A DNA stretch of 64,000 nt from a virus (lineage: Duplodnaviria > Heunggongvirae > Uroviricota > Caudoviricetes), in IMG/VR virus record IMGVR_UViG_3300031555_002005, one strand, 5' to 3'. Shown piece by piece: positions 17,548-32,757 of the stretch. The translations under genes and the position numbers were made by a program. Positions within the stretch are counted from its first letter, which is position 1; each line of letters starts with the position of its first letter. The notes under the pieces were generated by a model. It did no database searches. It was given only the letters and a program-made list of their open reading frames with translations, and had not been told where the DNA came from.

Positions 17548-18603
17548 TTGGAACAAATCAATAATAATTGGTGTGTTTATATGCACACCAATATCATAAA
17601 TAATAAAAAATATATTGGAATTACGTGCAAGAAGCCAGAACATAGGTGGAATGAAGGCAAAGGATATAAACATAATAGATATTTTTGGAATGCAATTCAA
17701 AAATATGGTTGGGAAAATTTTAAACATGAAATTGTTTCATTTAACCTCTCTCACGATGATGCTTGTAAAATGGAAAAATATTTAATCGCTTATTATAGCT
17801 CGAATAATTCGATATATGGTTATAATCTTACAAGTGGTGGAGATAGTGGGTTTTTACATACTGAAGAAACAAAAGAGAGAATAAGACAAGCTAATAGTGG
17901 TATAAGCAATGCAATGTACGGTATTTCTCCAAAAGAACGAATGGATGAAGATACGTACAAACAATGGCTTTATAAGCAACAGACAAATAAACCACACGGT
18001 GAAGATAATCCACAATATGGTGTATCTCCAAAAGAGAGAATGGATGAAACAACATACCAAGAATGGTTGTACAAACAGAAAAATAACAAGCCAAAAGGGA
18101 AAGACCATCCTATGTATGGAGTGTCGCCACAGGAGCGAATGGACGAAGATACATACAAAAATTGGTTGGAAAAAATGAAAAATCCAGCCAAAAGCATATC
18201 TGTTAAGTGCATTGAAACAGATAAAATATATAAAAGTGCAAGAGAAGCAGAAAGAGAAACAGGAATTGCACACAGTTCAATTGTGAAGTCTTGTATGTCA
18301 GAAGATCATTCGGTAATTGCTGGCGGATTTCATTGGTGTTTGGGCAGCGATAATTTTTCTATGGAGGATCTTGGCTTAGAATATAAAGGTAAGAGGTACA
18401 TTAGGTGCATAGAGACTAATCGTATTTATAAAACAGCCAGAGAAGTTAAGAGAGAAACAGGTTTGGATGACTCATCCATTAACAAATGTTGCAAGGGATA
18501 TTATTTCAAAACAGTTGGTGGCCTTCATTGGGAATATATTTATTTGCTTCCAGAACAATACGAAGAATGGTGCAAAACCAACAACTTAACAACACAAAAT
18601 TAA
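17548..18603 (+). CDS. GIY-YIG homing endonuclease with repeats
   Basis: WCVYMHTN..KKYIGIT..RW..GYNLTSGG; three repeats YGxSPKERMDExTY. Confidence 0.85.
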   Translation: MEQINNNWCVYMHTNIINNKKYIGITCKKPEHRWNEGKGYKHNRYFWNAIQKYGWENFKHEIVSFNLSHDDACKMEKYLIAYYSSNNSIYGYNLTSGGDSGFLHTEETKERIRQANSGISNAMYGISPKERMDEDTYKQWLYKQQTNKPHGEDNPQYGVSPKERMDETTYQEWLYKQKNNKPKGKDHPMYGVSPQERMDEDTYKNWLEKMKNPAKSISVKCIETDKIYKSAREAERETGIAHSSIVKSCMSEDHSVIAGGFHWCLGSDNFSMEDLGLEYKGKRYIRCIETNRIYKTAREVKRETGLDDSSINKCCKGYYFKTVGGLHWEYIYLLPEQYEEWCKTNNLTTQN

Positions 18604-19726: not shown

Positions 19727-20254
19727 ATGAACCTAACAAAAGTAAGTAAATATATTAGTTTAATTTTGCGCCATAAGCCAGAAACAATTGGCATCAGCCT
19801 TGATGAGCATGGCTGGGCCAATGTAAAGGATCTTATTGATGGCGTAAATAAAACTCACAAGCTAGATATGAAAATGCTTGAAGAGATTGTAGCAACAGAT
19901 GATAAGCAGCGCTATTCTTTCAATGAAGATAAGACTATGATTCGTGCCAATCAGGGGCATTCTATTGATGTAGACGTGGAACTTGAAGAAGCTGTGCCTC
20001 CTGAGATGCTTTGGCATGGAACTGGTGTTAAATACATGAAGAGCATTGATACAGAGGGGCTTATTCCTAAGTCCAGATTGTATGTGCATTTGTCTACTGA
20101 TCCTAATACGGCAATGGAGGTCGGTAAGAGACATGGTGCACCTATGATTTACTGCATTGATGCGCTAAGAATGCATGAAGATGGATATAAGTTTTACAAA
20201 TCCAAGAACGGTGTGTGGTTAACTAAACATGTGCCTGCGGAGTATTTTAGGTAA
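19727..20254 (+). CDS. kptA: RNA 2'-phosphotransferase Tpt1/KptA
   Basis: Near full-length collinearity with KptA as I recall it: LRHKPE..GI.LD..GWA, FNED..IRANQGHS, WHGT, YVHLS, NGVWLT. Confidence 0.9.
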   Translation: MNLTKVSKYISLILRHKPETIGISLDEHGWANVKDLIDGVNKTHKLDMKMLEEIVATDDKQRYSFNEDKTMIRANQGHSIDVDVELEEAVPPEMLWHGTGVKYMKSIDTEGLIPKSRLYVHLSTDPNTAMEVGKRHGAPMIYCIDALRMHEDGYKFYKSKNGVWLTKHVPAEYFR

Positions 20255-20714: not shown

Positions 20715-21509
20715 ATGCCCAAATTTTTTGTAAGTTCTGATATTCATAGTGCATATACTCCGTGGATGAAGGCATTAAAAGAAGCGGGTTTTGATGAAAA
20801 CAATCCTAGTCACAAAATTGTCGTATGCGGAGATTTGTTCGATAGACTGGATGAATCTATTCAGGTGTACGATTTTGTTAAGGACATGCTTGAAAAAGAT
20901 AAGTTAATTTACGTAAAAGGAAATCACGAAAGTCTAATGGAAGAATGCCTTGAAAGAGGATACCCTGGAAGGCATGATTGGTCAAATGGTACGGCAAAAT
21001 CTATTATTGACCTCGTTCCCCATGCAGAGAATTTTTATGATGGTTGCGCCGTCGTACGTGAAAAAATGAAATCTTTGTGGGGCAAGACTGTCAATTATTT
21101 TGAGACTAAGAATTATATTTTTGTACATGGCTGGATCCCGGTTATTTGCAAGGATAATTTGCCTAGCTATTATACTAGAAATAGAAAGTTTGAATTTAAC
21201 CCAGAGTGGCGTCATGCGCACTTTTCTGAGTGGGAACAGGCTAGATGGTTAAACGGTATGGATATGGCCAGAAAAGGCTTTGTGGAGCCTGAGAAGACTA
21301 TTGTATGCGGACACTGGCATTGCAGCTATGGTCATATGATGGATGATATGGCTAAGAATGGCCCATTTGATTGTATTGATGAATTTGGAGAAACTGCAAT
21401 TTGGGAACCTTATTATGGAAATGGTATAATTGCAATTGATCGCTGCACTGCACATACTGGAGAGGTTAATGTTCTTGTCATTGAGGATGAACTGTTGGAG
21501 GAATTATGA
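20715..21509 (+). CDS. calcineurin-like metallophosphoesterase
   Basis: SDIHS, GDLFDR, GNHE, GHWH motifs. Confidence 0.85.
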   Translation: MPKFFVSSDIHSAYTPWMKALKEAGFDENNPSHKIVVCGDLFDRLDESIQVYDFVKDMLEKDKLIYVKGNHESLMEECLERGYPGRHDWSNGTAKSIIDLVPHAENFYDGCAVVREKMKSLWGKTVNYFETKNYIFVHGWIPVICKDNLPSYYTRNRKFEFNPEWRHAHFSEWEQARWLNGMDMARKGFVEPEKTIVCGHWHCSYGHMMDDMAKNGPFDCIDEFGETAIWEPYYGNGIIAIDRCTAHTGEVNVLVIEDELLEEL

Positions 21510-21738: not shown

Positions 21739-22071
21739 ATGAGCAAGAATTACTTTGCCATTGAAAGAAACGAACAGTGTTGGACTCCCGTAATCCTGGC
21801 GGATAGAAACGGAAATCCCGCATTTGAAGAGTTTTTTGACATGAGCTATGATGAAATGAAGAACAGTGCGCTGCTTGAGGATTTCGTTGTTGCCGCTATG
21901 GAGGCAGCGGATATAGTTTGTGGTGTAGAAGATGATCAGACTATCATGACGCTTGTGGGCAGCGATGATGTTTTCATTTGGAGTATCATTATGGGATATG
22001 AAAATGATGATATTCGATATTGCCTTGTTGACTGGAAGAAAGATGGTCATTCTTACAGATATGCAACTTAA
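21739..22071 (+). CDS. hypothetical protein (110 aa)
   Basis: RBS AAGGAG. Confidence 0.8.
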   Translation: MSKNYFAIERNEQCWTPVILADRNGNPAFEEFFDMSYDEMKNSALLEDFVVAAMEAADIVCGVEDDQTIMTLVGSDDVFIWSIIMGYENDDIRYCLVDWKKDGHSYRYAT

Positions 22072-22079
22072 ATACCCCC

Positions 22080-22108
22080 TTGACAAATAATGGAAAGTGT
22101 GCTATAAT
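22080..22108 (+). promoter_or_regulatory. sigma70-type promoter (first of tandem pair)
   Basis: ccccTTGACAaat-N17-TATAAT. Confidence 0.75.
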
Positions 22109-22158
22109 ACAGATACTTCAAAGGAGAGCGGCCTTGAATCGGGAGATTACAAAGGGGC

Positions 22159-22187
22159 TTGACAAATGAAGAAAGATGTGCTATAAT
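22159..22187 (+). promoter_or_regulatory. sigma70-type promoter (second of tandem pair)
   Basis: ggcTTGACAaat-N17-TATAAT. Confidence 0.75.
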
Positions 22188-22201
22188 ATTTACAGCTTAA
22201 A

Positions 22202-22218
22202 ACAATACAAAATTAATG
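22202..22218 (+). promoter_or_regulatory. ACAATACAAAATTAAT box copy
   Basis: acaatacaaaattaatg. Confidence 0.6.
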
Positions 22219-22233
22219 AGAGGAACAAAAAAT

Positions 22234-22578
22234 ATGGCAATTAAGTATTTTGTAAACGAAGAGAAGCGACAGGTTATTGGTCTGCTGGAAAACACTCGGT
22301 GGGACGCACTGAATAAGATTTGTAAGACTGTTGCGGATACTGATTTTTGTGTAGTGCCCAATGAAAAGTACATGATGCCCTCTGAATTCAGAACTGTTGT
22401 CACCTGTGATCCTAGAGATGAGTTTGATGTAGAGATTGGTAAGAAGATTGCCAAGGAGCGTCTACTAAAGAATTATTACGCATCTCTTGATAAGCGTGTG
22501 AACAAGTTCTTGGACGCTGCGCTGATCTTCAATGGAAAGGTATTCAAGACTCCTGAAACGCTTGAAAATAACACTTGA
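22234..22578 (+). CDS. hypothetical protein (114 aa)
   Basis: Start moved from box-internal ATG 22216 to ATG 22234. Confidence 0.75.
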   Translation: MAIKYFVNEEKRQVIGLLENTRWDALNKICKTVADTDFCVVPNEKYMMPSEFRTVVTCDPRDEFDVEIGKKIAKERLLKNYYASLDKRVNKFLDAALIFNGKVFKTPETLENNT

Positions 22579-22603
22579 CAAAATGTAAGATGTATGATAT
22601 AAT
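22575..22603 (+). promoter_or_regulatory. sigma70-type promoter for tRNA island 1
   Basis: TTGACA-N17-TATAAT overlapping stop of upstream ORF. Confidence 0.8.
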
Positions 22604-22617
22604 ACATACACTTAATC

Positions 22618-22634
22618 ACAATACAAAATTAATG
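22618..22634 (+). promoter_or_regulatory. ACAATACAAAATTAAT box copy
   Basis: acaatacaaaattaatg in the leader of a tRNA operon (no CDS follows). Confidence 0.6.
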
Positions 22635-22697
22635 GAAAGTTACGATTGAATAATGGGTAACGAGTCAGCTGATGAGGTTTAGAGCTGGCATGAATTT

Positions 22698-22774
22698 GGT
22701 TCCGTGGCTCAGTGGTCTAGAGCAGCGGGCTCATAATCCGTCAGACTTCGGTTCGAATCCGAACGGAACCACCA
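22698..22774 (+). tRNA. tRNA-Met/Ile2 (CAT)
   Basis: Manual cloverleaf: acceptor ggttccg/cggaacc, loop ctCATaa, T-loop ttcgaat, encoded CCA. Confidence 0.9.
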
Positions 22775-22777
22775 AAT

Positions 22778-22854
22778 GCTCTAGTAGCTCAGTTGGTTAG
22801 AGTATTCGCCTGATAAGCGAAAGGTCGGCTGTTCAAGTCAGCCCTAGAGCACCA
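22778..22854 (+). tRNA. tRNA-Ile (GAT)
   Basis: acceptor gctctag/ctagagc, loop ctGATaa, CCA. Confidence 0.9.
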
Positions 22855-22857
22855 AAT

Positions 22858-22983
22858 GACGGTGTAGCTCAGTTGGAAGAGCAATAGCCTTTGTCAGATG
22901 CAGGCTTGCACTAATTCAGTTCGATTCTGAAGTTTGGCACCATAAGCTATGGGTCGAGAGTTCGAGCCTCTCCACCGTCACCA
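22858..22983 (+). tRNA. interrupted tRNA: Lys(TTT) after removal of 50-nt nested insert (alternative register Gln TTG)
   Basis: acceptor gacggtg/caccgtc, D arm, anticodon stem atagc/gctat enclosing cttt+50 nt+taa, T arm gagag-ttcgagc-ctctc, CCA. Confidence 0.75.
22893..22942 (+). ncRNA. nested mini tRNA-like element (acceptor + T arm + ACCA)
   Basis: gtcagat/gtttggc 7-bp helix (3 G-U), ttcag-ttcgatt-ctgaa T arm, ends ACCA. Confidence 0.6.
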
Positions 22984-22989
22984 AAAGAA

Positions 22990-23265
22990 ATGGAGTTTAT
23001 TATGTATCATTCTTATTCTTGGAAGAAACATCATGATTGGGTTAAAGCGATAAGGAAAAGAAAAGTTGCAAAAGACATTTTCCCTTTTTATGACGAATGC
23101 CCCGAATTACATAAGCTCCATCATTATTCTAAAAATAAATTTCATTGTGTTTGGACTTATTCTCCGAAAACAAAGCAGAATGGAATTTATAACTACAAAG
23201 TAAGTGACATGCGAAAAATCCAAAGATTATTTGATTCTAAAAAAGAATATGATATGGTCCCTTAG
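22990..23265 (+). CDS. hypothetical His/Lys-rich protein inside tRNA island
   Basis: ORF track; 3' end overlaps tRNA-Asn start. Confidence 0.55.
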   Translation: MEFIMYHSYSWKKHHDWVKAIRKRKVAKDIFPFYDECPELHKLHHYSKNKFHCVWTYSPKTKQNGIYNYKVSDMRKIQRLFDSKKEYDMVP

Positions 23266-23331
23266 CTCAGTTGGCAGAGCAATAGGCTGTTAACCTATGT
23301 GTCGCTGGTTCGAGCCCAGCAGGGATCGCCA
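23256..23331 (+). tRNA. tRNA-Asn (GTT)
   Basis: acceptor ggtccct/agggatc, loop ctGTTaa, CCA. Confidence 0.9.
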
Positions 23332-23450
23332 AGCCTAGTTAGTTATCTGCGCAGATACGGCACATCCCATGGTTAAGGCGGCTGACCTTATAAAAGCCAC
23401 CCTGGTACGGTGATAATGCTTGCTAACGGCAAAACAACCGTACAACATAT

Positions 23451-23604
23451 ATCCCAGTAGCTCAGCTGGATAGAGCAACGGTCTTCGGGGAGTTCGTTAA
23501 AAGGTAAGATACTTTAGGATAAAACCTAAGGAGATTACAGTTCGAGTCTGTTGCTCCCCACCATAAACCGTAGGTCGGGGGTTCGAGTCCCTCCTGGGAT
23601 ACCA
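23451..23604 (+). tRNA. interrupted tRNA: Arg(TCT) after removal of 77-nt nested insert (alternative register Arg TCG)
   Basis: acceptor atcccag/ctgggat, anticodon stem acggt/accgt enclosing cttc+77 nt+taa, T arm ggggg-ttcgagt-ccctc, CCA. Confidence 0.75.
23487..23563 (+). ncRNA. nested full-length tRNA-like element with 6-nt 'anticodon' loop
   Basis: ggggagt/gctcccc acceptor, tttagg-ataaaa-cctaag arm, acag-ttcgagt-ctgt T arm, ends ACCA. Confidence 0.6.
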
Positions 23605-23610
23605 AAATAT

Positions 23611-23745
23611 CGGGAACAGGTGGAATGGTATACACATCGGAACCATAACTGAGTTTTGATAAAAACTTGCCAACAGCAAATACGTGGACGTAAAATCCGA
23701 CGCTTTTGCAAGCATCCTTGGTTCGAATCCAAGGGTTCCCGACCA
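23611..23745 (+). tRNA. tRNA-like gene with ACAGCAA-module insert in anticodon-arm position (anticodon uncertain, possibly CAT)
   Basis: acceptor cgggaac/gttcccg, T arm ccttg-gttcgaatc-caagg, CCA; stem tcgga/tccga encloses hairpin agtttt-gata-aaaact + ACAGCAA (23673..23679). Confidence 0.55.
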
Positions 23746-23748
23746 AAT

Positions 23749-23823
23749 GGTCCCGTCGTCTAGTGGCTAGGACTCAGGATTTTCATTCCTGCAACAGGGT
23801 TTCGAATACCCTCGGGATCACCA
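23749..23823 (+). tRNA. tRNA-Glu (TTC)
   Basis: acceptor ggtcccg/cgggatc, loop ttTTCat, CCA. Confidence 0.9.
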
Positions 23824-23896
23824 ATAAAGTAATTCTTGTCAAACGATACACAAAAGATGCTAAAGAATTACCTAATTTTAAAAGTTAGGTGATAGC

Positions 23897-24541
23897 ATGG
23901 AACAGAAGAAAAAAGATTATTCCAAGTATAGAAAAAAGTATTGGAGAGAACAAATAAAACATAGAGGTGTTCAATTTCTAGGTGGTGTGTGTCGTAATTG
24001 CGGAGGCGCTTTTGAAGATTGTTGCTATGATTTTCATCATTTAAATCCAAAAGAAAAAGACTTCACGATTGGAAATGTACAAACTAACGGAGCAAAAAGT
24101 TGGTTTAAAGTACGTGACGAATTAAAGAAGTGTGTACTATTATGTGCGAACTGTCATCGTCTTGCTCATGCAGGACTAATTGAAACAGATCTTCAGTTAT
24201 ATTTTAATGATGAATACTATGAATGGGATTTGACAAAATTTAAACTAATTGATTCATCAACTGGTTTGCCCAAGGATGCAAATATTACATGTCCTATATG
24301 CGGACAATACAAATCTCCAAATGCAAATAAATGTTCAGAGTGTGCAATGAAAGAGCAAATAAGATTTGAAGTCTCACGAGAAGAATTAAAAGAAATGATA
24401 TACACTATGGCATTTACTGATATTGGTAAAAAATATGGGGTTTCTGATAATTCTATTAGAAAAAGATGTGAAAAATTTGGATTACCATCTTACAAGAAAG
24501 ATATTCTAAAATACTCACCAGAAGAGTGGGCATCTATTTAG
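23897..24541 (+). CDS. HNH homing endonuclease
   Basis: FHHLNPKEKD...LLCANCHRLAH; C-terminal HTH-like tail. Confidence 0.85.
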   Translation: MEQKKKDYSKYRKKYWREQIKHRGVQFLGGVCRNCGGAFEDCCYDFHHLNPKEKDFTIGNVQTNGAKSWFKVRDELKKCVLLCANCHRLAHAGLIETDLQLYFNDEYYEWDLTKFKLIDSSTGLPKDANITCPICGQYKSPNANKCSECAMKEQIRFEVSREELKEMIYTMAFTDIGKKYGVSDNSIRKRCEKFGLPSYKKDILKYSPEEWASI

Positions 24542-24611
24542 ATATTATTCTATAAAACATAGACAATAAGTTTTAAGAATGTATATTCTGTTTTAAAGTT
24601 GTCATTTATAC

Positions 24612-24687
24612 GGTGGTGTAGCATAGTGGCTAATGCGCTGGACTGTCTCTCCAGTTACCGTGGGTTCGAGTCCCATCACCATCGCCA
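24612..24687 (+). tRNA. tRNA-Asp (GTC)
   Basis: acceptor ggtggtg/caccatc, loop ctGTCtc, CCA. Confidence 0.9.
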
Positions 24688-24690
24688 TAT

Positions 24691-24775
24691 CGGTGAGTCG
24701 CCTAGTTGGTTAGGGCAGCAGACTGTAAATCTGCCGGTTTTACCATCGTTGGTTCAAATCCAACCTCACCGACCA
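24691..24775 (+). tRNA. tRNA-Tyr (GTA), class II
   Basis: acceptor cggtgag/ctcaccg, loop ctGTAaa, long variable arm, CCA. Confidence 0.9.
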
Positions 24776-24917
24776 GTCCTCTTGATGCAGCGAGAGTAAG
24801 ATAATTTCAGCCGATGACAAGGCTATACATTGGTACTGCATTACCGATTCACGACGTAAATACGGATATAACAACGTATTTGAAGGACAGTGCCAACTAC
24901 TGGTTAGTTGGAGATCT

Positions 24918-24992
24918 GCGGTAGTAGCTCAATGGTAGAGTTCCAGATTTCCAATCTGGCTGTTGCGAGTTCGAGTCTCGTCTACCGCTCCA
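24918..24992 (+). tRNA. tRNA-Gly (TCC)
   Basis: acceptor gcggtag/ctaccgc, loop ttTCCaa, CCA. Confidence 0.9.
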
Positions 24993-24993
24993 T

Positions 24994-25160
24994 GCTATAT
25001 GGAGTATGCAACTTTAATTAAATGAATTTAGTAATAAAGACTTCGGGCCTTGATGCGTACGACAGGGCTTTATGTAAAGGTGGATTAATAAGCTTAGAAG
25101 TACAAAAAGCTAAATGAGTTTAATTCATTGGGGGTTGTGCATAGCTCCGCTTCATATAGC
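24994..25160 (+). ncRNA. unassigned multi-branched structured RNA candidate
   Basis: Closing helix gctatatg/catatagc, then tatgcaac/gttgtgcata, aatgaatt/aattcatt, ataaag/ctttat, agctt/aagct. Confidence 0.4.
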
Positions 25161-25214
25161 AACCACCTGAACAAATGACATAGTGTTATGTGTGGCTGAC
25201 CAACCTTAAGGTCA

Positions 25215-25700
25215 ATGAATATTGAACAAGTAATTCTTTATAAAAGAATCGAAAAAGTACTTAAGAATTACCTAATAAATGACTTGGGTGATTCACAAAT
25301 GAAGAAAAAGGAAAGCTATTGTTTGAATTGTGGAGTTTCTATACCAAATAGAAATAAATATTGCTCAAACAAATGCCAACTAGATTTCCAATATAAAGAG
25401 TATATACAGAGATGGAAAAATGGGCTTGAAGATGGTATGAGAGGTGAATATCTTATATCAGTACACATTAGAAAATATTTAATGGAAAAGTTTGATAACA
25501 AATGCTCAAAATGTGGATGGGGAGAAATAAATCCTTATACCAAAAATGTACCACTAGAAGTCCATCATAAAGATGGAGATTATACCAATAATTCAGAAGA
25601 CAATCTTGACTTACTATGTCCAAATTGTCACTCATTAACAGAAACATATAAAGCTGCAAATAAAGGCAATGGAAGAAAAGATCGTAAAAAATACACATAA
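25215..25700 (+). CDS. HNH homing endonuclease
   Basis: EVHHKDGDYTNN..LDLLCPNCHSL; start may be internal ATG 25299. Confidence 0.85.
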   Translation: MNIEQVILYKRIEKVLKNYLINDLGDSQMKKKESYCLNCGVSIPNRNKYCSNKCQLDFQYKEYIQRWKNGLEDGMRGEYLISVHIRKYLMEKFDNKCSKCGWGEINPYTKNVPLEVHHKDGDYTNNSEDNLDLLCPNCHSLTETYKAANKGNGRKDRKKYT

Positions 25701-25703
25701 TAT

Positions 25704-25777
25704 GCCCCGATAGTTCAACGGTAAAACGGTGGATTTGTAATCCTCTGTTCTCGGTTCAAGTCCGGGTCGGGGCTCCA
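25704..25777 (+). tRNA. tRNA-Thr (TGT)
   Basis: acceptor gccccga/tcggggc, loop ttTGTaa (one anticodon-stem mismatch), CCA. Confidence 0.8.
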
Positions 25778-25914
25778 TATTAAAAGCACAAGTGGATAAG
25801 TACTTTATAGTCAACTGACTAGTCATGTCACGAAAGGTAAGACGAGTTTGCACAAAAATGGCCATGGACATTTAGTGATGAATCCGCAAATCTACGAAAC
25901 GGAGGATATTGCCT

Positions 25915-25962
25915 ATGATTGTTTGTAGTGAATCCAGTGTGGGGGACACCCCACCCGCTTAG
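25915..25962 (+). CDS. conserved 15-codon uORF, copy 1 (MIVCSESSVGDTPPA)
   Basis: GGAGGA 7 nt upstream; TAG stop sits in loop of hairpin cccac/gtggg; paralog at 30959. Confidence 0.4.
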   Translation: MIVCSESSVGDTPPA

Positions 25963-26017
25963 TAGTGGGTTTCGCCGTTCCCACCAAAAACGGCGAACTT
26001 AATTAAGAGGTAATAAA

Positions 26018-26200
26018 ATGTGTAAACACCAAAACGGAAGTATATCAAGTATGTTTGGCATTCCAGTAGATCCTTGTGTGTACAAGGATATTGAAGCATA
26101 CAAGAATGTAACAGTAATTGTTAGCAAATGTATTCACTGTGGTGCTATTAATATCAGTTGGAAGCGTCAGGAAGATACTGAAGAAATTGAAGTTGAGTAA
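26018..26200 (+). CDS. zinc-ribbon small protein (60 aa)
   Basis: RBS AGAGG; Cys pairs. Confidence 0.6.
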   Translation: MCKHQNGSISSMFGIPVDPCVYKDIEAYKNVTVIVSKCIHCGAINISWKRQEDTEEIEVE

Positions 26201-26208
26201 TTAAATAT

Positions 26209-26299
26209 GGGGAATTGGCCGAGTGGTCGAAGGCAGCTGACTTGAAATCAGTAGACGGTGCTGAGCCGTCCGTGGGTTCGAATCCTACATTCCCCGCCA
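26209..26299 (+). tRNA. tRNA-Ser (TGA), class II
   Basis: acceptor ggggaat/attcccc, loop ctTGAaa, long variable arm, G73, CCA. Confidence 0.9.
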
Positions 26300-26344
26300 C
26301 AAAATGGGCTTACGGCTTCACCCAACCAAAGAAGCCGACGATAT

Positions 26345-26436
26345 GGAGCAGTACCCAAGTGGCTATAAGGGGACGCCCTGCTAAGGCGTTAGACCGAGCA
26401 ATCGGTGCGAGAGTTCGAATCTCTCCTGCTCCGCCA
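26345..26436 (+). tRNA. tRNA-Ser (GCT), class II
   Basis: acceptor ggagcag/ctgctcc, loop ctGCTaa, long variable arm, CCA. Confidence 0.9.
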
Positions 26437-27064
26437 TGCACTCAAGGGCACTACAGATGTTACCGATATTAGAAAACTCATATCGCCCTCGTAAATACTA
26501 AGAATGGTGCGAAGTATTTACACAAATCTCACGCAACACTACTTATTGCAGTAAGTTGATTGAATAAAGGTGTTGCTTATATAGGGGAGTCGTTCAAAGG
26601 AAGGACTGTAGTCTCCAAAACTACCAATGGGATATCGTGATTCTCCTCCCCTGCCAAGTAAGTGATACTTAAATACTGCAGAATAAAGGATTTGCCTTCC
26701 AGGGAACTGTGCCTGCATAGATCCCGTTTACTGGTGTTGATGCCAAAGTACACGGTGCAGTAGCCAGCTGATAAAGCCAACAACAAAGATTGGCCGCTTG
26801 TTTCGTGCGGCATATAAAAGTGAAACTCGCTAGTCACAGTGTGAACCTGAAAAAGATGCTTCGTCAAAAGCTTAAAATGGCATCGCTCTTCAATAATTGG
26901 CGGTTGTTGGAAATCTAAAGAAAGGAAATTATGTATCATGTGGAAGACTTTTAAAAAGAGACTTTTTGATGCTATTGTTGAATACGGTAAGTTTGTTCAG
27001 TTTATGTATTCCTAATAGCGTTATTAAGTGGATCATTGAGCCTAAAAAGCTTAATGATTCCCTC
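26437..27064 (+). ncRNA. 628-nt ORF-free structured region; large ncRNA candidate
   Basis: No supported + strand ORF; helices gcaacac/gtgttgc, ggggag/ctcccc and many local hairpins; flanked by tRNAs. Confidence 0.4.
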
Positions 27065-27093
27065 TTGACAAATCTTAAAACATGTGATATAAT
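27065..27093 (+). promoter_or_regulatory. sigma70-type promoter (conserved cassette)
   Basis: cctcTTGACAaat-N17-TATAAT. Confidence 0.8.
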
Positions 27094-27110
27094 TCCTTCA
27101 GTTCAAAGGA

Positions 27111-27127
27111 ACAATACAAAATTAATA
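27111..27127 (+). promoter_or_regulatory. ACAATACAAAATTAAT box copy
   Basis: acaatacaaaattaata, 2 nt before a tRNA 5' end. Confidence 0.6.
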
Positions 27128-27128
27128 T

Positions 27129-27216
27129 TGGGGATTCGCCTAGAGGCTAAGGGCGGCGGGCTTTGACCCCGTTTGGAGAAATCCTATCGTGTGTTCGAAT
27201 CACACATCCCCAACCA
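27129..27216 (+). tRNA. class II-shaped tRNA with Gln anticodon TTG
   Basis: acceptor tggggat/atcccca, loop ctTTGac, 16-nt variable arm (gga-gaaa-tcc), A73, CCA. Confidence 0.7.
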
Positions 27217-27219
27217 TAT

Positions 27220-27296
27220 AGAGCCGTAGCCAAGCGGTTAAGGCATCAGACTCTGACTCTGACATTTCATTGGTTCAAATCCAATCGGCTCTACCA
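27220..27296 (+). tRNA. tRNA-Gln (CTG)
   Basis: acceptor agagccg/cggctct, loop ctCTGac, CCA. Confidence 0.88.
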
Positions 27297-27322
27297 TTAT
27301 TTATTTGACATTAAAGAAGTGA

Positions 27323-27922
27323 TTGACATTGGCGAAACATGTAACTACAGAAGAAATAGCAACAAGAATAAAAAATACTTTTAAACAAAATGTTTCATTA
27401 GTTGGAGAATATAAGAATAAACGATCAAAATTAACATTACATTGTAATGATTGTGGACATGAATGGGAATCTCCATCAAGTAGTGTTATATATGGAGATA
27501 GACACGAGTGTCCTCGGTGTGGAAGACATGCAAAACAATTGAATGAATTTCAATGTACAAACTGTGGACAAGTTGTGTATCGTAAAGATTCAGACATTAA
27601 AAAGAATCAAACAGGTAATTTCTTTTGTTCTCAACAATGTGGAAATGAGTTTAAAAATCGAATACGAAAAGAAAGTGGAGAATGGGATAACTCGTTAAGC
27701 TATAGACGGAAAGCATTTGAAACTTATGAACATTTATGTTGTGTATGCGGTTGGAATGAAGATGAAAGAATTTTAGAAGTTCATCATAAAGATGAAGATC
27801 GTACAAACAATATGGTAAATAATCTATGTATTCTATGTCCTACATGTCATAGAAAAATAACATTAGGATATTATGAATTAACAGATGATTTCAAGCTAGT
27901 TGATAAAAATCAAAAGAATTAA
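27323..27922 (+). CDS. HNH homing endonuclease with zinc ribbons
   Basis: EVHHKDEDRTNN..CILCPTCHRKI; several CxxC pairs. Confidence 0.85.
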   Translation: MTLAKHVTTEEIATRIKNTFKQNVSLVGEYKNKRSKLTLHCNDCGHEWESPSSSVIYGDRHECPRCGRHAKQLNEFQCTNCGQVVYRKDSDIKKNQTGNFFCSQQCGNEFKNRIRKESGEWDNSLSYRRKAFETYEHLCCVCGWNEDERILEVHHKDEDRTNNMVNNLCILCPTCHRKITLGYYELTDDFKLVDKNQKN

Positions 27923-27924
27923 TA

Positions 27925-28001
27925 TCCGGTAGTGGCCAAATTTGGTAAGGCTCTTGATTTGGGTTCAAGAAATTTGCACGTTCGAGTCGTGTCTACCGGA
28001 C
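27925..28001 (+). tRNA. tRNA-Pro (TGG)
   Basis: acceptor tccggta/taccgga, loop ttTGGgt; CCA not encoded. Confidence 0.85.
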
Positions 28002-28028
28002 CACAAAAAATAACAAAAGGAGATTTTT

Positions 28029-28202
28029 ATGCTAGAATTTGGAACAACTGTAACCGATACCAACACTGGATATTCAGGTAAGATCACCGCACGTGCAGAG
28101 TATAATATTGGTACAATTTTGTATCTGGTCGAAAGCGTTGATACAACTGGTAGACCGATTGAACAGTGGATTAACTCTGAAAGAATTGAAGTAGAAATTT
28201 AA
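28029..28202 (+). CDS. hypothetical small protein (57 aa)
   Basis: RBS AAAGGAG 8 nt upstream; read manually, below track cutoff. Confidence 0.6.
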   Translation: MLEFGTTVTDTNTGYSGKITARAEYNIGTILYLVESVDTTGRPIEQWINSERIEVEI

Positions 28203-28212
28203 AAAATACCCC

Positions 28213-28240
28213 TTGACAAATCAGAATTATATGATATAAT
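28213..28240 (+). promoter_or_regulatory. sigma70-type promoter for the ACAGCAA RNA array
   Basis: ccccTTGACAaat-N16-TATAAT. Confidence 0.8.
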
Positions 28241-28257
28241 ACAAGCAGTTCAAGGGA

Positions 28258-28274
28258 ACAGTACAAAATTAATA
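28258..28274 (+). promoter_or_regulatory. ACAATACAAAATTAAT box copy (variant)
   Basis: acagtacaaaattaata in leader of a non-coding array. Confidence 0.55.
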
Positions 28275-28275
28275 A

Positions 28276-28369
28276 AGGCGCACACAGCAAATTTACTATA
28301 TGGTTAAAATTTTTTATGTTTGTGTTAAAAAATGAGAAGGTTCAAATCCTTTAAAAATTTCATGCGCCT
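28276..28369 (+). ncRNA. ACAGCAA-module RNA unit A
   Basis: outer helix aggcgca/tgcgcct, 5' bulge cACAGCaa (28284..28290), inner helix aaattt/aaattt, cargo with T-arm-like aagg-ttcaaat-cctt. Confidence 0.55.
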
Positions 28370-28379
28370 TGACAAAAAA

Positions 28380-28442
28380 AGACACTAACAGCAACTTTAT
28401 TAACTATACAATTTGGGCTTGTAAATATTGTTAATAGTGTCT
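28380..28442 (+). ncRNA. ACAGCAA-module RNA unit B
   Basis: outer helix agacact/agtgtct, bulge aACAGCAA (28388..28394), inner helix attaac/gttaat. Confidence 0.55.
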
Positions 28443-28449
28443 TGAATAT

Positions 28450-28561
28450 GGGAACGTCCGGTGGCAGTAAATAAGTGCATGGAGTGGGCAGCACACACAG
28501 CAATTTTACTTAACAATTTCTGGAAAAAATTGACTCCTTGGTTCAACTCCGAGGGTTCCCA
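28450..28561 (+). ncRNA. tRNA-like RNA with permuted ACAGCAA module (unit C)
   Basis: acceptor-like gggaac/gttccc, T arm cttgg-ttcaact-ccgag; hairpin gtgc-N12-gcac + ACAGCAA (28497..28503); agtaaa/tttact. Confidence 0.5.
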
Positions 28562-28582
28562 AAAATCCCACTAACTTAATAT

Positions 28583-28712
28583 GCGGAAGTAGCTCAGCTG
28601 GGAGAGCAATAGTATTTATTTAAAAATGTGTTTAGATTAACACTAACAGCAATTTTTATTTAAAGAAGAAGTTGGGGACTATGGGTCGTAGGTTCGAGCC
28701 CTACCTTCCGCA
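28583..28712 (+). tRNA. tRNA-like gene with permuted ACAGCAA module in anticodon loop (unit D; anticodon unassigned)
   Basis: acceptor gcggaag/cttccgc, D and T arms canonical, stem atagt/actat encloses 64 nt: taaaaa-[gtgtt-tagatt-aacac]-tAACAGCAA-ttttta. Confidence 0.6.
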
Positions 28713-28724
28713 TCAACTAAATAT

Positions 28725-28852
28725 GCCAGAGTAGCTCAGTTGGTAGAGCACGTATATATCAACCAACGTGGTATGAAAATTTCACGCACAGCAATTTTAA
28801 TGATTCTTGCCTTTTAAGCACGTTGTCGTGGGTTCGAGTCCCATCTCTGGCA
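28725..28852 (+). tRNA. tRNA-like gene with ACAGCAA module (unit E; anticodon unassigned)
   Basis: acceptor gccagag/ctctggc, D/T arms canonical; insert has hairpin cgtg-N12-cacg + cACAGCAA (28788..28794); flanked by direct repeat agcacgt. Confidence 0.55.
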
Positions 28853-28862
28853 AACTTTATAT

Positions 28863-28981
28863 GGCGCAATGGTGTAATGGTAGCACAACGTAATAATTGA
28901 GGTTTGTTAAAATCTTAAACTGCAATTTTACAATGCATGATCACGCCGTAGGTTGAAGTTCGATTCTTCATTGCGTCTCCA
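28863..28981 (+). tRNA. tRNA-like gene with variant module ACTGCAA (unit F; anticodon unassigned)
   Basis: acceptor ggcgcaa/ttgcgtc, T arm tgaag-ttcgatt-cttca, CCA; hairpin gttt-N11-aaac + TGCAATTTTA. Confidence 0.5.
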
Positions 28982-28998
28982 AATTAACAATTAAATAA

Positions 28999-29118
28999 AG
29001 GCACATACAGCAATTTTAAATTCTGAAGCAGCCATTTTGCTTTGTAGTATAACTGGTTAGTACGCAGGACTGATAATCCTGAAATGCTGGTTCGAGTCCA
29101 GTCTTTAAAAATGTGCCT
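28999..29118 (+). ncRNA. ACAGCAA-module RNA unit G carrying an internal tRNA-like domain
   Basis: outer aggcacat/atgtgcct, bulge ACAGCAA (29007..29013), inner ttttaaa/tttaaaa; cargo has arm cagga-ctGATaa-tcctg and T arm ctgg-ttcgagt-ccag. Confidence 0.6.
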
Positions 29119-29129
29119 TGCAATTAAAA

Positions 29130-29235
29130 GAGAGACGAACAGCAAATTGATTGAATTAAAGAAGATAGAAAACTTATTTACTAATTATTGTTGTTTTATT
29201 TATGTATTAGATTATTTATCACTTTTAAGTCTCTC
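29130..29235 (+). ncRNA. ACAGCAA-module RNA unit H
   Basis: outer gagagac/gtctctc, bulge gAACAGCAA (29139..29145), AT-rich cargo. Confidence 0.5.
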
Positions 29236-29250
29236 GAATAAATAAAATCT

Positions 29251-29313
29251 CCAAAGACGCTAACAGCAATGTACGACTTGACTGCAAATCAATAATCGTA
29301 AAATGCGTCTTGG
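29251..29313 (+). ncRNA. ACAGCAA-module RNA unit I
   Basis: outer ccaaagacgc/gcgtcttgg, bulge tAACAGCAA (29263..29269), inner tacga/tcgta. Confidence 0.55.
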
Positions 29314-29353
29314 ATTTTAGTAATAAAATCAAAACTTTTAGGAGGAACAAAAA

Positions 29354-30907
29354 ATGGAATTTATGAGTGCAGTTAGACAGACTCTCAATAATGAGTACAA
29401 TGTGTCTATCACTGAGAACGGCGCAGTTGGTTATAGAACCACTGGCAAGGAGCTGCTTGACCTGAACTTTGCAGTAGCATCTCTTCGTAAGATGACCGAT
29501 GCAGAAGTCGCAAAGAGATTCAAGAAGGCTTTTTGTGAAGATCAGGTTCTCGCAATGAAGTGGCTGTTCTACGCAAGAGACGTTCGTGGTGGTTTGGGTG
29601 AGCGTAGACTGTTCAGAGTTGTTCTGGCAGATCTGGTACAGTCCAATCCTGAAATGGTTATTCCTGTCATGAATCTGATTCCTGAGTATGGTCGCTACGA
29701 TGACCTGTGGTGTCTGTTAGATGACAAGGAAGCAGCTAATGTGATTTATCAGATTGTTGATAATCAGCTGAAGCGTGACTGGGAAAACATGGCTTCAAAG
29801 AAGCCTATTTCTATTCTGGCAAAGTGGATGCCTTCTATCAATGCATCTTCTGCTAAGACCAAGGAATACGGAAAGAAGCTGTGCAAGGCTCTGAAGATGA
29901 CTGAGCGTGAATACCGCAAGGCTCTGAGCAAGCTTCGTGCATATCTGGATGTTGTTGAAGTTAAGATGTCCGATAAGAACTGGTCTGCAATTAAGTATGA
30001 AGCAGTTCCTTCTCGTGCAAATCTGATTTACAACAGCGCATTCCTGAGAAATGACGAAGCAAGACGTAGAGAATATCTTGGCCAGCTTGAAAAGGGCGAG
30101 ACTAAGATTAACGCATCTACTCTGTTCCCTCACGATATTGCTCATAAGTATACTAACAACTCATGGGGTCGTGGTCTAAAGGCAAAGGATGCAACCATTG
30201 AAGCTCTGTGGAAGGCGCTACCTGACACTGTAAATGGCTGTGGTAATACTATTGTTGTTGCTGACGGCTCTGGTAGTATGACTTGCACTGTTGACAATCA
30301 CTCTCGTGTTACTGCACTTGAAGTTGCAAACGCACTGGCAATTTACTTTGCTGAGCACTCTTCTGGTCAGTTCAAGGATAAGTACATTACTTTCTCTGAA
30401 AGACCTCAGTTTGTTGACTTCAGCAATTGTAAGACTCTGCATGACAAGCTACACACTGCACTAATGCATAATGAAGTTGCAAATACTAACATCGAAAAGG
30501 TGTTTGATTTGATTCTGACTTCTGCGGTCAATAACCATATGCATCAGGAAGATCTTCCTCAGAACATCCTGATCATCTCTGATATGGAGTTTGATAGCTG
30601 TGCAACTTCTGGCAATGTTGATCGTTGGAGCTACCGTAACAGACCTACTCAGAAGCTATTCGATGTTATCGCTCAGAAGTACGCAAGAGCAGGTTACAAG
30701 ATGCCTCGTCTGGTATTCTGGAATGTAAACTCTCGCACTGGTACTATTCCTGTAAAGGAAAATGACCTTGGTGTGGCACTGGTCAGCGGTTTCTCTGTAA
30801 ACGTTGCCAAGATGGTCATGAGTGGCAAGACTGATCCTTTCGAGTGTCTGCTTGAAACTCTGAACTCTGAGAGATATGCTCCTGTTGAGGAAGCTTTAAA
30901 TCAGTAA
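29354..30907 (+). CDS. DUF2828 / TROVE(Ro60)-like protein with C-terminal vWA domain
   Basis: N-terminal ITENGAVGYRTTGKELLDLNF signature as I recall for DUF2828; MIDAS-like VVADGSGSM; strong RBS AGGAGG. Confidence 0.75.
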   Translation: MEFMSAVRQTLNNEYNVSITENGAVGYRTTGKELLDLNFAVASLRKMTDAEVAKRFKKAFCEDQVLAMKWLFYARDVRGGLGERRLFRVVLADLVQSNPEMVIPVMNLIPEYGRYDDLWCLLDDKEAANVIYQIVDNQLKRDWENMASKKPISILAKWMPSINASSAKTKEYGKKLCKALKMTEREYRKALSKLRAYLDVVEVKMSDKNWSAIKYEAVPSRANLIYNSAFLRNDEARRREYLGQLEKGETKINASTLFPHDIAHKYTNNSWGRGLKAKDATIEALWKALPDTVNGCGNTIVVADGSGSMTCTVDNHSRVTALEVANALAIYFAEHSSGQFKDKYITFSERPQFVDFSNCKTLHDKLHTALMHNEVANTNIEKVFDLILTSAVNNHMHQEDLPQNILIISDMEFDSCATSGNVDRWSYRNRPTQKLFDVIAQKYARAGYKMPRLVFWNVNSRTGTIPVKENDLGVALVSGFSVNVAKMVMSGKTDPFECLLETLNSERYAPVEEALNQ

Positions 30908-30958
30908 ACTGGTACACGCAAGTGTCTTGTTTAAATAATCCAAAGGAGGACTTTGCCT

Positions 30959-31006
30959 ATGATTGTATCAGCTAATTCCAACTTGGAGGATTGTCCACCA
31001 GCTTAG
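30959..31006 (+). CDS. conserved 15-codon uORF, copy 2 (MIVSANSNLEDCPPA)
   Basis: GGAGGActTTGCCTATGATTGT shared with copy 1; TAG in loop of hairpin tccacc/ggtgga. Confidence 0.4.
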   Translation: MIVSANSNLEDCPPA

Positions 31007-31041
31007 GTGGAGTCCTGGGTAAGACTTAAAACTGCCCATTC

Positions 31042-31165
31042 AGACATTAACAGCAAACAATAATTACTTGGTTGCGAGGTTAGCTTAGCTGGTCTAAAGC
31101 AATAGATGTGAAAATCTATGATCACTGGTTCGAACCCAGTACCTTGTGTTTAAGTGATAATGTCT
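31042..31165 (+). ncRNA. ACAGCAA-module RNA unit J carrying a tRNA-like domain
   Basis: outer agacatt/aatgtct, bulge aACAGCAA (31049..31056), inner ttactt/aagtga; cargo 31074..31148 cloverleaf-like with 6/8-nt 'anticodon' loop. Confidence 0.6.
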
Positions 31166-31176
31166 AGTTTCTATAT

Positions 31177-31254
31177 TGCGGAGTGGACAAGAGGTCTAAG
31201 TCGCCAGCCTCATAAGCTGGAGGTCGCTGGTTCGAATCCAGCCTCACGCAACCA
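31177..31254 (+). tRNA. tRNA-Met/Ile2 (CAT) with bulged acceptor stem
   Basis: loop ctCATaa, T arm gctgg-ttcgaat-ccagc, CCA; acceptor tgcggag/ctc(a)cgca needs a 1-nt bulge. Confidence 0.6.
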
Positions 31255-31257
31255 TAT

Positions 31258-31344
31258 GCCGCTGTGGTGGAATCGGTAGACACCAGGGACTTAAAATCCC
31301 TTGCTGACAACAGCGTACGAGTTCGAGTCTCGTCAGCGGCACCA
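31258..31344 (+). tRNA. tRNA-Leu (TAA), class II
   Basis: acceptor gccgctg/cagcggc, loop ctTAAaa, long variable arm, CCA. Confidence 0.9.
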
Positions 31345-31379
31345 TAAAAAATATTGGCACTTTGAAAGGAGAAATTAAA

Positions 31380-31538
31380 ATGCCTGTATTTTATATTTTA
31401 GTCATTCTCGCAGCGTGTCTGTTGTGGTTCTTACTAGCTTTTATGTTTAAGCCAATGGGAAAGCTTGGACATAGAATCTGGAAAGATGCAGTAGATGCAA
31501 TGAATGAGGATGATGAAAACGAAAACAAAAAGGAGTAA
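31380..31538 (+). CDS. small membrane protein (52 aa), NfeD-like position
   Basis: RBS AAAGGAG; N-terminal TM helix; precedes SPFH gene. Confidence 0.55.
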   Translation: MPVFYILVILAACLLWFLLAFMFKPMGKLGHRIWKDAVDAMNEDDENENKKE

Positions 31539-31544
31539 AAACAA

Positions 31545-32465: not shown

Positions 32466-32485
32466 AACTAAATTGAGGTAACACA

Positions 32486-32749: not shown

Positions 32750-32757
32750 TTAAATAT

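Follow-up and report, generated by a model that had tools for sequence, protein, structure and literature searches.

Can a tRNA gene whose anticodon loop is interrupted by a second tRNA-like sequence still yield a tRNA, and if so, by what route? This question is raised by a 64,000-nucleotide stretch of DNA from a tailed phage (IMG/VR record IMGVR_UViG_3300031555_002005; Caudoviricetes), referred to here as the window, in which the genes for tRNA-Lys(UUU) and tRNA-Arg(UCU) are each split by a nested element of 50 or 77 nt. Both genes belong to an array of about 25 tRNA or tRNA-like genes that extends from position 22698 to 34049, and they are composed as follows.

22858..22892, plus strand: 5' exon of tRNA-Lys(UUU), with acceptor strand, D arm, ATAGC and the loop bases CUUU (positions 32-35)
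22893..22942, plus strand: nested insert of the Lys gene, 50 nt, a tRNA-like minihelix read from the sequence
22943..22983, plus strand: 3' exon of tRNA-Lys(UUU), with UAA (positions 36-38), GCTAT, variable loop, T arm, acceptor strand and ACCA
23451..23486, plus strand: 5' exon of tRNA-Arg(UCU), with CUUC as its last bases (positions 32-35)
23487..23563, plus strand: nested insert of the Arg gene, 77 nt, a tRNA-like element with an ACCA end
23564..23604, plus strand: 3' exon of tRNA-Arg(UCU), with UAA as its first bases

Positions 22858..22980 and 23451..23601 matched the Rfam tRNA model (RF00005) over model positions 1-71 at 55.8 and 52.4 bits, respectively (gathering cut-off, 29 bits), and the sole break in these matches was an insertion in the anticodon loop, of 53 nt in the Lys gene and 80 nt in the Arg gene. 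Run in intron mode, ARAGORN called the two outer genes and assigned them introns of 50 and 77 nt; in its default mode, it called the 77-nt insert as a separate tRNA with an abnormal 6-nt loop. The outer anticodon stems (atagc/gctat in Lys and acggt/accgt in Arg) enclose the inserts, and both genes are split between anticodon positions 35 and 36. Exact removal of each insert, from its first G to its CCA, restored the 7-nt loops CUUUUAA and CUUCUAA, each with U33 and a sensible anticodon, and ARAGORN then called standard tRNA-Lys(ttt) and tRNA-Arg(tct). The original prediction, which was made from the letters of this stretch alone, had described the arms, stems, inserts, helices, T loops and A-CCA ends, all of which are present; the loops that it expected after excision (CTTTTAA for Lys UUU and CTTCTAA for Arg UCU) and the intron-tolerant tRNA search that it proposed bore it out.

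The spliced Arg sequence was 92% identical, across the junction, to an uninterrupted gene in locus L075 (L-numbers designate related loci, including those around homologues of the flanking proteins), and BLAST matches to annotated tRNA-Arg genes of cultured phages stopped at query nucleotides 36 and 114, which are the exon ends. Since a shift of the excised block by one base in either direction gives an anticodon unlike that of the uninterrupted genes, the boundaries in the window are unambiguous. We rejected the intron boundaries given by ARAGORN itself (Met CAT and Arg TCG), which need cuts inside the nested helix or the CCA and disagree with the uninterrupted orthologues.

Each insert opens with a G that starts a 7-bp acceptor-like helix of its own (gtcagat/gtttggc in Lys and ggggagt/gctcccc in Arg, 7/7 pairs in both) and ends in A-CCA. 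In the Lys insert, GTCAGAT is followed by a 15-nt linker, a T arm (TTCAG-TTCGATT-CTGAA, 5/5 stem pairs) that abuts the acceptor helix directly, GTTTGGC, A and CCA. The Arg insert has a T arm in the same abutting position (TACAG-TTCGAGT-CTGTT, 4/5 stem pairs), as well as a 7-bp arm closed by a 6-nt loop; the T loops are thus TTCGATT in Lys and TTCGAGT in Arg. The RNase P determinants U-1, G1-C72 and ACCA are all present in the Lys insert; the Arg insert has G1-C72 and ACCA but C at -1. In 10^6 shuffles per insert, a 7/7 terminal helix combined with at least 4/5 T-stem pairs arose in about 1 of 10^4, with CCA and TTCGA not yet required. Thermodynamic folding of the inserts alone gave modest support (z = -1.5 and -2.4), and the minimum-energy fold of the whole Arg gene differed from the nested cloverleaf. 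Single-sequence folding being weak, we therefore relied on comparative evidence. Rfam searches of the region at E <= 10, and of the whole window at the gathering score, returned matches to tRNA alone and none to ribozymes, to group I or II introns or to RNase P RNA.

The comparison established that the nested elements are a recurrent family, not a singleton. In contigs of viral and metagenome origin, pattern scans that demanded TTCRA, CCA and TAA detected more than 50 different nested elements. Loci around homologues of the flanking proteins and two pattern scans of viral contigs provided 31 candidates, which after filtering gave 29 distinct cases, and 27 distinct element sequences once 3 from other routes were added; the metagenome scan contributed at least about 25 further elements. 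The host genes encode tRNA-Lys(UUU), Asn(GUU), Arg(UCU), Thr(UGU), Ile(GAU, UAU) and Leu(UAA). Exact removal of the element, from its first base to the CCA, led to a normal ARAGORN tRNA call in 29/29 distinct viral cases; the first base was G in all 29, and the base preceding it was U in 28. A few metagenome elements begin with C1-G72.

A scan of 185,579 species, with one genome each, returned 81 matches. We rejected 79 of these as ordinary tRNAs followed by TAA or as chance matches, and both of the two true cases lay on contigs that resemble phage sequence placed in metagenome-assembled genomes. The nested design is thus close to phage-specific. Among deposited phage genomes, megablast with 22000..35000 found nothing, and neither did a distant-mode search with a 917-nt concatenate of ten nested junctions, so that the searches identified no carrier in culture. 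The window phage has its nearest cultured relative in a phage that infects a bacterium of the Clostridium group (47.5% identity in DnaE), and its own host is likely a member of the Bacillota.

To compare structures, we aligned the acceptor and T-arm parts of 21 elements, which comprise 12 pairs. These were paired at 98.8%, compared with 61.8% in shuffles; double-change cells numbered 97 versus 23.6 in shuffles, and the covariation score was 1.03 versus 0.23 in shuffles and 0.12-0.20 with slid partners. For the acceptor helix this evidence is partly circular, because that helix had been used to filter candidates. The T stem had played no part in selection and was 97% paired, with covariation at 4/5 pairs. 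All 7 acceptor pairs were formed in 27/27 relatives and all 5 T-stem pairs in 24/27, and G1-C72 was invariant in the aligned set. For 8 homologues of the 77-nt insert, the RNAalifold consensus consisted of an acceptor helix, an anticodon-like arm and a T arm, with compensatory changes at 15/17 pairs; a 49-nt homologue of the Lys insert in L088 likewise keeps its pairs despite changed bases. The original prediction had considered that uninterrupted relatives, together with nested helices that do not covary, would mark the inserts as decaying. Uninterrupted relatives do exist, but the nested helices covary strongly, and these patterns indicate that the structure of the nested elements is under selection. 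What is conserved is the acceptor/T-arm minihelix with NCCA, a processing substrate. Such a minihelix is the minimal substrate of RNase P and of the tRNA 3'-end enzymes: G+1, U-1 and a 3' RCCA are what bacterial RNase P classically recognizes, and CCA-adding enzyme and tRNA 3' endonucleases bind the same module.

The position of the insert in the outer loop is variable, being 35|36 in the window, 36|37 in the Lys gene of L088 and 34|35 in two Leu(UAA) genes. The L088 homologue of the 50-nt insert lies one base later than its counterpart (CUUUU|G...GCCA|AA, compared with CUUU|G...ACCA|UAA in the window). Whatever the insertion point, the block to be excised coincides with the tRNA-like element, with the element's +1 base and CCA as its limits. 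That the boundaries track the inner element speaks against an enzyme that takes its measure from the body of the outer tRNA and favors enzymes that recognize the ends of the inner element. A possible exception to this boundary rule is a tRNA-Cys(GCA)-like gene in L180 (4345..4524, minus strand) with a 105-nt tRNA-like insert, where a 7-nt loop is restored only by a cut after CC rather than CCA (TTGC|...CACC|AAT).

Inner elements range from minihelices of 44-50 nt, made up of acceptor helix, a 9-15-nt linker and T arm, to full cloverleaves. Among the latter, some resemble real tRNAs, namely Asp GUC with G73, Gly UCC with U73, and Thr UGU, and a 58-nt element (L153 and L172) has its T arm and 3' acceptor strand in common with a full tRNA-Val of L171. 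The inner elements seem to derive from real tRNA genes that became nested in tRNA genes and were later cut down to their processing parts; a series from full tRNA to minihelix is what would be expected if only the processing signals were maintained. In L171 (2230..2347, minus strand), TAA and an orphan 3' half of tRNA-Lys come immediately after the complete tRNA-Val(UAC), with no matching 5' half upstream and with an intact tRNA-Lys 370 nt away. This arrangement looks like a decayed or recombined nested gene.

Interruptions differ between relatives. In the closest relative, L007 (RlaP 94% identical), the array has the same order as in the window (Met, Ile, Lys, Asn, Arg, Glu, Asp), with Lys and Arg uninterrupted at the same places and Leu(UAA) interrupted; the Leu(UAA) gene of the window is intact. 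Both Lys and Arg are interrupted in L088, and in L001 Asn is interrupted while Lys and Arg are intact. L088 keeps the gene order of the window, its Tpt1 and phosphoesterase (77% identical) adjoin the interrupted genes, and its Lys and Arg genes carry homologues of both window inserts.

Are the interrupted genes then simply dead, broken by a tRNA-derived mobile insertion and left unspliced, with the phage using tRNA-Lys and tRNA-Arg of its host? The uninterrupted genes of related phages and the decayed arrangement in L171 fit such a view, but we consider it distinctly unlikely. Exons of differing sequence still give perfect tRNAs after exact excision in the 29 distinct viral examples, and in the Arg gene the exons are better conserved (82-88% identity to homologues) than the insert (58-69%), which keeps only its helices. 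ARAGORN in both modes found no second Lys or Arg tRNA beside the interrupted ones, in an array that otherwise mirrors those of relatives. AGA accounts for 52% of the Arg codons in the window, and AAA for 43 per 1000 codons. Given the sole copies and this codon usage, the outer Lys and Arg genes look needed by the phage. Moreover, a homing-endonuclease open reading frame (ORF) within a gene, as found in the long inserts described below, normally persists only if the gene still works.

Several features suggest that the elements move. Two tRNA-Lys genes with only 68% identity to each other (L097 and L144) share a 61-nt element whose copies are 100% identical, and homologous elements occur in different hosts, Arg in L088 and Lys in L106. 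Longer inserts of 735-907 nt in L129, L132, L140 and L161 share the tRNA-like ends and the CCA|TAA junction (for example, GCTAAAT...ATTTAGC-T-CCA|TAA) and carry ORFs; the window inserts have none. The 735-nt insert at L161 2504..3313 contains an HNH ORF (PF01844, 23.8 bits; cut-off, 21.4), and those of L129, L132 and L140 (905-907 nt) contain homologues of a protein encoded in the window next to the interrupted Arg gene.

23897..24541, plus strand: free-standing HNH endonuclease gene (PHROG HNH families, E = 2e-23), 293 nt downstream of the interrupted Arg gene

Homologues of this HNH gene directly flank ORF-less interrupted tRNA genes in a dozen loci, which makes its product a candidate for the homing endonuclease of this intron family. 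The presence or absence of inserts at a site, an identical element in diverged hosts and the versions with endonuclease ORFs suggest that the nested elements are selfish and mobile and that homing endonucleases associated with them bring about their spread. The window's own copies, notably the Arg insert with its divergence from homologues, look old and bear no sign of recent transfer.

A function for the phage would be another reading of the arrangement. The insert might delay or gate the maturation of tRNA-Lys and tRNA-Arg until the phage RNA ligase has been made, or its release might supply the minihelix and the tRNA halves as decoys for anticodon nucleases, a counter-defense role that the original prediction had also raised. 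Lys(UUU) and Arg tRNAs are known targets of these nucleases, for which an interrupted anticodon loop would be no substrate; the phage also invests heavily in RNA repair, and the inner elements are long-lived with conserved structure. However, tRNAs for Asn, Thr, Ile and Leu serve as hosts as well, occurrence is patchy even among close relatives, and nothing ties the elements to any defense system. With identical elements in diverged genes and endonuclease-ORF versions pointing to selfish spread, and no specific evidence for counter-defense or decoys, we regard a functional device as quite improbable and retain the view of the elements as selfish introns.

The surroundings of the interrupted genes contain further mobile genes and introns. 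Free-standing homing-endonuclease genes (HNH and GIY-YIG/NUMOD3) are unusually dense in the window (6341..6946, 12072..12944, 17548..18603, 25215..25700 and 27323..27922), with two HNH genes sitting between tRNA genes of the array. Related loci hold long tRNA introns of 464-738 nt with no CCA end (L140 9758..10568, L161 4403..4941, L180 5791..6545 and L146 1143..1962), which encode PD-(D/E)XK_5 (I-Ssp6803I-like) or HNH endonucleases and are probably classical group I introns; Rfam at the gathering score gave no intron family match in five related loci with long tRNA introns. At 1208..2467, the window has a reverse transcriptase ORF nearest to group II intron maturases (TIGR04416, E = 3e-32, below cut-off), and Rfam found no group II intron RNA anywhere in the window despite this maturase-like ORF. 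Directly 3' of the interrupted Lys gene lies a 91-amino-acid ORF (22990..23265) without a family match, whose only tblastn relatives among the related loci, at about 30% identity, are in L115 and L147, both of which carry nested tRNAs.

By what route might the inserts be removed? We give somewhat better than an even chance to the view that they are mobile tRNA-mimicking introns, cut at the 5' side by RNase P and after the CCA by an endonuclease and then sealed out by a phage ligase. The following features of the window bear on this proposal.

22575..22603, plus strand: sigma-70-type promoter-like site (TTGACA, 17 nt, TG-TATAAT), predicted function
40124..41509, plus strand: Rnl5/DraRnl-like ATP-dependent RNA ligase (phrog_968 RNA ligase, E = 9e-66)
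41493..42302, plus strand: RlaP-like nucleotidyltransferase (Pfam, PHROG and NCBIfam matches)
42274..43200, plus strand: polynucleotide kinase and HD phosphohydrolase (Pfam, PHROG and NCBIfam matches)
19727..20254, plus strand: Tpt1/KptA RNA 2'-phosphotransferase (PF01885, E = 3e-48), just upstream of the tRNA array
20715..21509, plus strand: metallophosphoesterase (PF00149, E = 1e-13), just upstream of the tRNA array

The promoter-like site matches the consensus at 12/12 positions, with an extended -10 element, and the array's first tRNA follows about 95 nt downstream of it. The whole interrupted gene would be transcribed with the array, and the nested element would fold into an acceptor/T-arm minihelix ending in NCCA, which the tRNA end-processing machinery of the cell would take for a tRNA. 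RNase P would then cut 5' of the element (U/C-1 | G+1), leaving a 3'-OH on the 5' exon, and an endonuclease cutting right after the CCA would leave a 5'-phosphate on the 3' exon. The exon halves would be held together by the outer acceptor and anticodon stems, and the Rnl5-like ATP-dependent phage ligase would seal the nick to yield tRNA-Lys(UUU) and tRNA-Arg(UCU). Such introns would be tolerated because the phages that carry them already have RNA-repair ligases.

For the RNase P step, the determinants carried by the inserts provide strong sequence logic. On the 3' side, exonucleolytic trimming would destroy the 3' exon, so that a precise endonuclease would be required. RNase Z of some bacteria and E. 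coli RNase BN have been reported to cut after CCA, and an RNase Z/BN-type activity is the leading candidate. The proposed exon-sealing enzyme is the ligase at 40124..41509, which the original prediction had already singled out as Rnl2/Rnl5-like. Rnl5 ligases are marked by an N-terminal OB fold ahead of a nucleotidyltransferase domain that bears the motif I lysine. Besides its phrog_968 match, this protein aligned with TIGR02306 (the DraRnl family) over residues 7-196 (E = 5e-13; 48.7 bits, under the cut-off of 151) and with the Pfam RNA_ligase and PHA02142 OB-fold models (PF09414 and PF21189), under their cut-offs; its motif K188-M-H-G is invariant in 9 homologues. The assignment as Rnl5/DraRnl-like agrees with that prediction, and the protein is a candidate for the sealing step. 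Among the best 80 of 219 entries, at least 8 other contigs with nested tRNAs also encode a ligase of this family.

The neighboring genes, however, might be read as pointing to another chemistry. A dedicated endoribonuclease of phage or host could excise the inserts and leave 2',3'-cyclic phosphate and 5'-OH ends; kinase/HD protein, metallophosphoesterase and ligase would then heal and seal these, and Tpt1 would strip the junction 2'-phosphate, as in yeast and plant splicing, with the tRNA-like shape being a mere relic of the origin of the element. The window encodes genes that would suit such a route (Tpt1/KptA, polynucleotide kinase with HD protein, metallophosphoesterase and RlaP-like nucleotidyltransferase), Tpt1 and phosphoesterase adjoin the interrupted genes in L088 too, and we know of no enzyme that cuts after CCA in the likely host group. 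Nevertheless, a dedicated nuclease would leave unexplained why very different elements conserve only the acceptor/T minihelix geometry, G1-C72 and NCCA, and why the cut sites follow the inner element as its position in the outer loop shifts. No splicing-endonuclease-like protein was found among the scanned ORFs, and by inspection no bulge-helix-bulge motif could be drawn at the junctions. Repair sets of this kind have, moreover, already been explained as a counter to anticodon nucleases (PMC7824862), and we consider excision by a dedicated nuclease fairly unlikely. The described repertoire of phage RNA repair comprises ligase, RlaP, kinase, phosphoesterases, Thg1 and a TROVE-like protein (PMC7824862), and the window holds this set, including a Thg1-like 3'-5' polymerase gene near the ligase in the repair cluster 40124..44903. 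With the 3'-OH and 5'-phosphate ends predicted for RNase P-type processing, the RlaP-like and kinase/HD genes would be context and not needed. A LAGLIDADG endonuclease gene is inserted among the repair genes (43261..44049).

A number of points weigh against excision by tRNA end-processing. The intron-like inserts with tRNA ends put forward by the original prediction hold across the family, but their excision by end-processing enzymes, like every other cleavage and ligation step and the very removal of the inserts, is something that we infer from sequence. The enzyme that would cut after the CCA is a candidate only and the weak link of the scheme, especially for a likely Bacillota host: Bacillus-type RNase Z has been reported to avoid CCA-bearing precursors, and no RNase Z-like gene was found among the window ORFs scanned, about a dozen of which are without a family match. 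The Arg insert has its C at -1 and one T-stem mismatch, and the census is biased toward the form seen in the window by the motifs that the pattern scans demanded. As for the ligase, it reaches Rnl5 family models only under their curated cut-offs and has no sequence match in PDB, its co-occurrence with nested tRNAs reflects in part, or in large part, shared ancestry, and characterized Rnl5 enzymes seal nicks in duplexes and not in loops. Finally, kinase, phosphoesterases and Tpt1 suit 2',3'-cyclic-phosphate and 5'-OH ends rather than those left by RNase P-type enzymes. With these points taken into account, we hold the full splicing mechanism to have about an even chance.

The region contains further unusual RNAs and genes. 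A second kind of interrupted tRNA-like RNA is found at 28583..28712, 28725..28852, 28863..28981 and 23612..23748 and has more than 60 distinct homologues in L001-L086. Their acceptor, D and T arms are good, but in place of the anticodon loop they have a hairpin and, after it, a conserved (T/G)AACAGCAA motif; most copies are without CCA. Three of them lie just upstream of a DUF2828/DUF7788 protein gene (29354..30907; phrog_850 'RNA-binding protein') whose product may be Ro/TROVE-like, and 28680..28757 gave a weak match to Rfam YrlA (25 bits; cut-off, 69). These RNAs may be Y-RNA-like tRNA mimics of the phage rather than interrupted tRNAs. Odd tRNA-like genes are located at 31073..31149, 33958..34049, 27129..27216 and 29041..29110; the types are two ARAGORN 'tRNA-???' calls with abnormal anticodon loops, an 88-nt tRNA-Gln(UUG) with a long extra arm and a 70-nt Ile(GAT)-like gene with no CCA. 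A Band-7 protein gene lies at 31545..32465. Further downstream are NAD salvage genes (48768..51118), for a NadR-like nucleotidyltransferase/kinase and a PnuC nicotinamide-riboside transporter, with an NAD-dependent DNA ligase gene nearby (53618..55573). Several nested-tRNA phages encode tRNAs with a CUA anticodon, called 'Pyl' by ARAGORN (L132 5903..5974, L146 791..879, L150 73..161 and L180 10234..10387), which suggests that TAG is read as an amino acid there. Read with the standard bacterial code, the endonuclease ORF in the insert of L129 is broken.

Nested tRNA genes have practical consequences for annotation. ARAGORN miscalled them as Met and Arg(tcg) in the window and as His and Gln in relatives; since standard tRNA finders miss or mislabel such genes, phage tRNA inventories and codon-reassignment calls may be wrong. 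If the proposed mechanism is true, tRNA genes can nest and give two products: a gene whose inner element has remained a full tRNA would be the source of two tRNAs. Phage RNA ligases would gain a routine job beyond the repair of nuclease damage. The series of elements also suggests an origin for a protein-dependent intron, namely that a tRNA gene lands in another tRNA gene where a ligase is already present. For programmed excision and ligation of RNA in bacteria, the nested design would offer a module that is ready to use and can be tested.

How do the nested elements compare with systems already known? A full-text literature search returned no description of tRNA-shaped introns besides a report on Lak megaphages, where an 'enigmatic' tRNA intron was noted as a curiosity and a single case (Devoto et al., Nat Microbiol 2019, PMC6784885). 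That intron, in tRNA-Thr, occurs in some genomes but not in others and is highly conserved in sequence (PMC6784885). It is almost certainly the same phenomenon as the window elements, although ten nested-junction queries gave no sequence link, and the proposed mechanism, if true, would explain it. The Lak report proposed no family, boundary rule, covariation, endonuclease link or mechanism (PMC6784885). The original prediction that no described class looks like this was therefore nearly right, apart from this one unexplained precedent. We rate the feature as real and recurrent and, as a class, essentially undescribed.

Group I introns, such as that of cyanobacterial tRNA-Leu UAA, share several traits with the nested elements. 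They too interrupt the anticodon loop, with the U34|A35 site of tRNA-Leu(UAA) common to both, they are likewise sporadic, occur in phages and can carry homing-endonuclease ORFs, and the related loci also hold the long CCA-less introns with PD-(D/E)XK ORFs, as group I introns can. A group I intron has a P3-P8 core and is usually longer than 200 nt, its 5' exon ends in U (forming U-G in P1), and the intron itself ends in G. We rejected this assignment: the inserts are 44-135 nt long (50 and 77 nt in the window), have no catalytic core and gave no Intron_gpI match even at E <= 10, in agreement with the view of the original prediction that they are too short; they end in CCA and not G, and the Arg 5' exon ends in C and not U. 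Unlike group I introns, the nested elements would need proteins and a ligase for splicing.

The protein-spliced introns of archaea and eukaryotes (EndA/Sen, RtcB or Trl1, and Tpt1) are likewise cut by enzymes and joined by a ligase, with the halves held by the tRNA domain; the window has a Tpt1 homologue, as do these splicing sets. Archaeal and eukaryal introns, however, lie at 37|38 rather than at 34|35, 35|36 or 36|37, and the nested elements differ further in their predicted 3'-OH and 5'-phosphate ends and in predicted recognition through the intron's own tRNA shape. A bulge-helix-bulge has a 4-bp helix between two 3-nt bulges at the splice sites; by inspection, GUCA and GGGG after the 5' site cannot pair with ACCA before the 3' site, and this reading was rejected. 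No EndA/Sen splicing endonuclease was found among the about 60 window ORFs scanned with Pfam, of which about a dozen are without a match, and none is known from bacteria.

Embedded tRNA-shaped modules that recruit RNase P and a tRNA 3' endonuclease are familiar from mascRNA at the MALAT1 3' end, from mitochondrial tRNA punctuation and from engineered tRNA-guide RNA arrays. There, too, release of the module sets the ends of the flanking RNA, but the flanks are never rejoined, whereas here they are two tRNA halves that need ligation. The phage T4 Pnkp/Rnl1 system provides the counterpart for that step, in which a phage ligase likewise closes an anticodon-loop break in tRNA-Lys. In T4, a host nuclease inflicts the break at 33|34, leaving cyclic-phosphate ends, and Rnl1 seals it; here the break would be programmed by the structure of the gene and sealed by an Rnl5-like ligase. 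By analogy, the nested elements may combine mascRNA-like processing signals with T4-style ligation in the anticodon loop, a combination that we found described nowhere. We see an evenly balanced chance that they constitute a new intron class, mobile and tRNA-mimicking, with neither ribozyme nor bulge-helix-bulge, in which end-processing enzymes mistake the intron for a tRNA and a viral ligase rejoins the exons. If true, this would add a new splicing route to the group I, group II, spliceosomal and endonuclease/ligase (bulge-helix-bulge) routes, one that borrows the tRNA-maturation machinery by mimicry.

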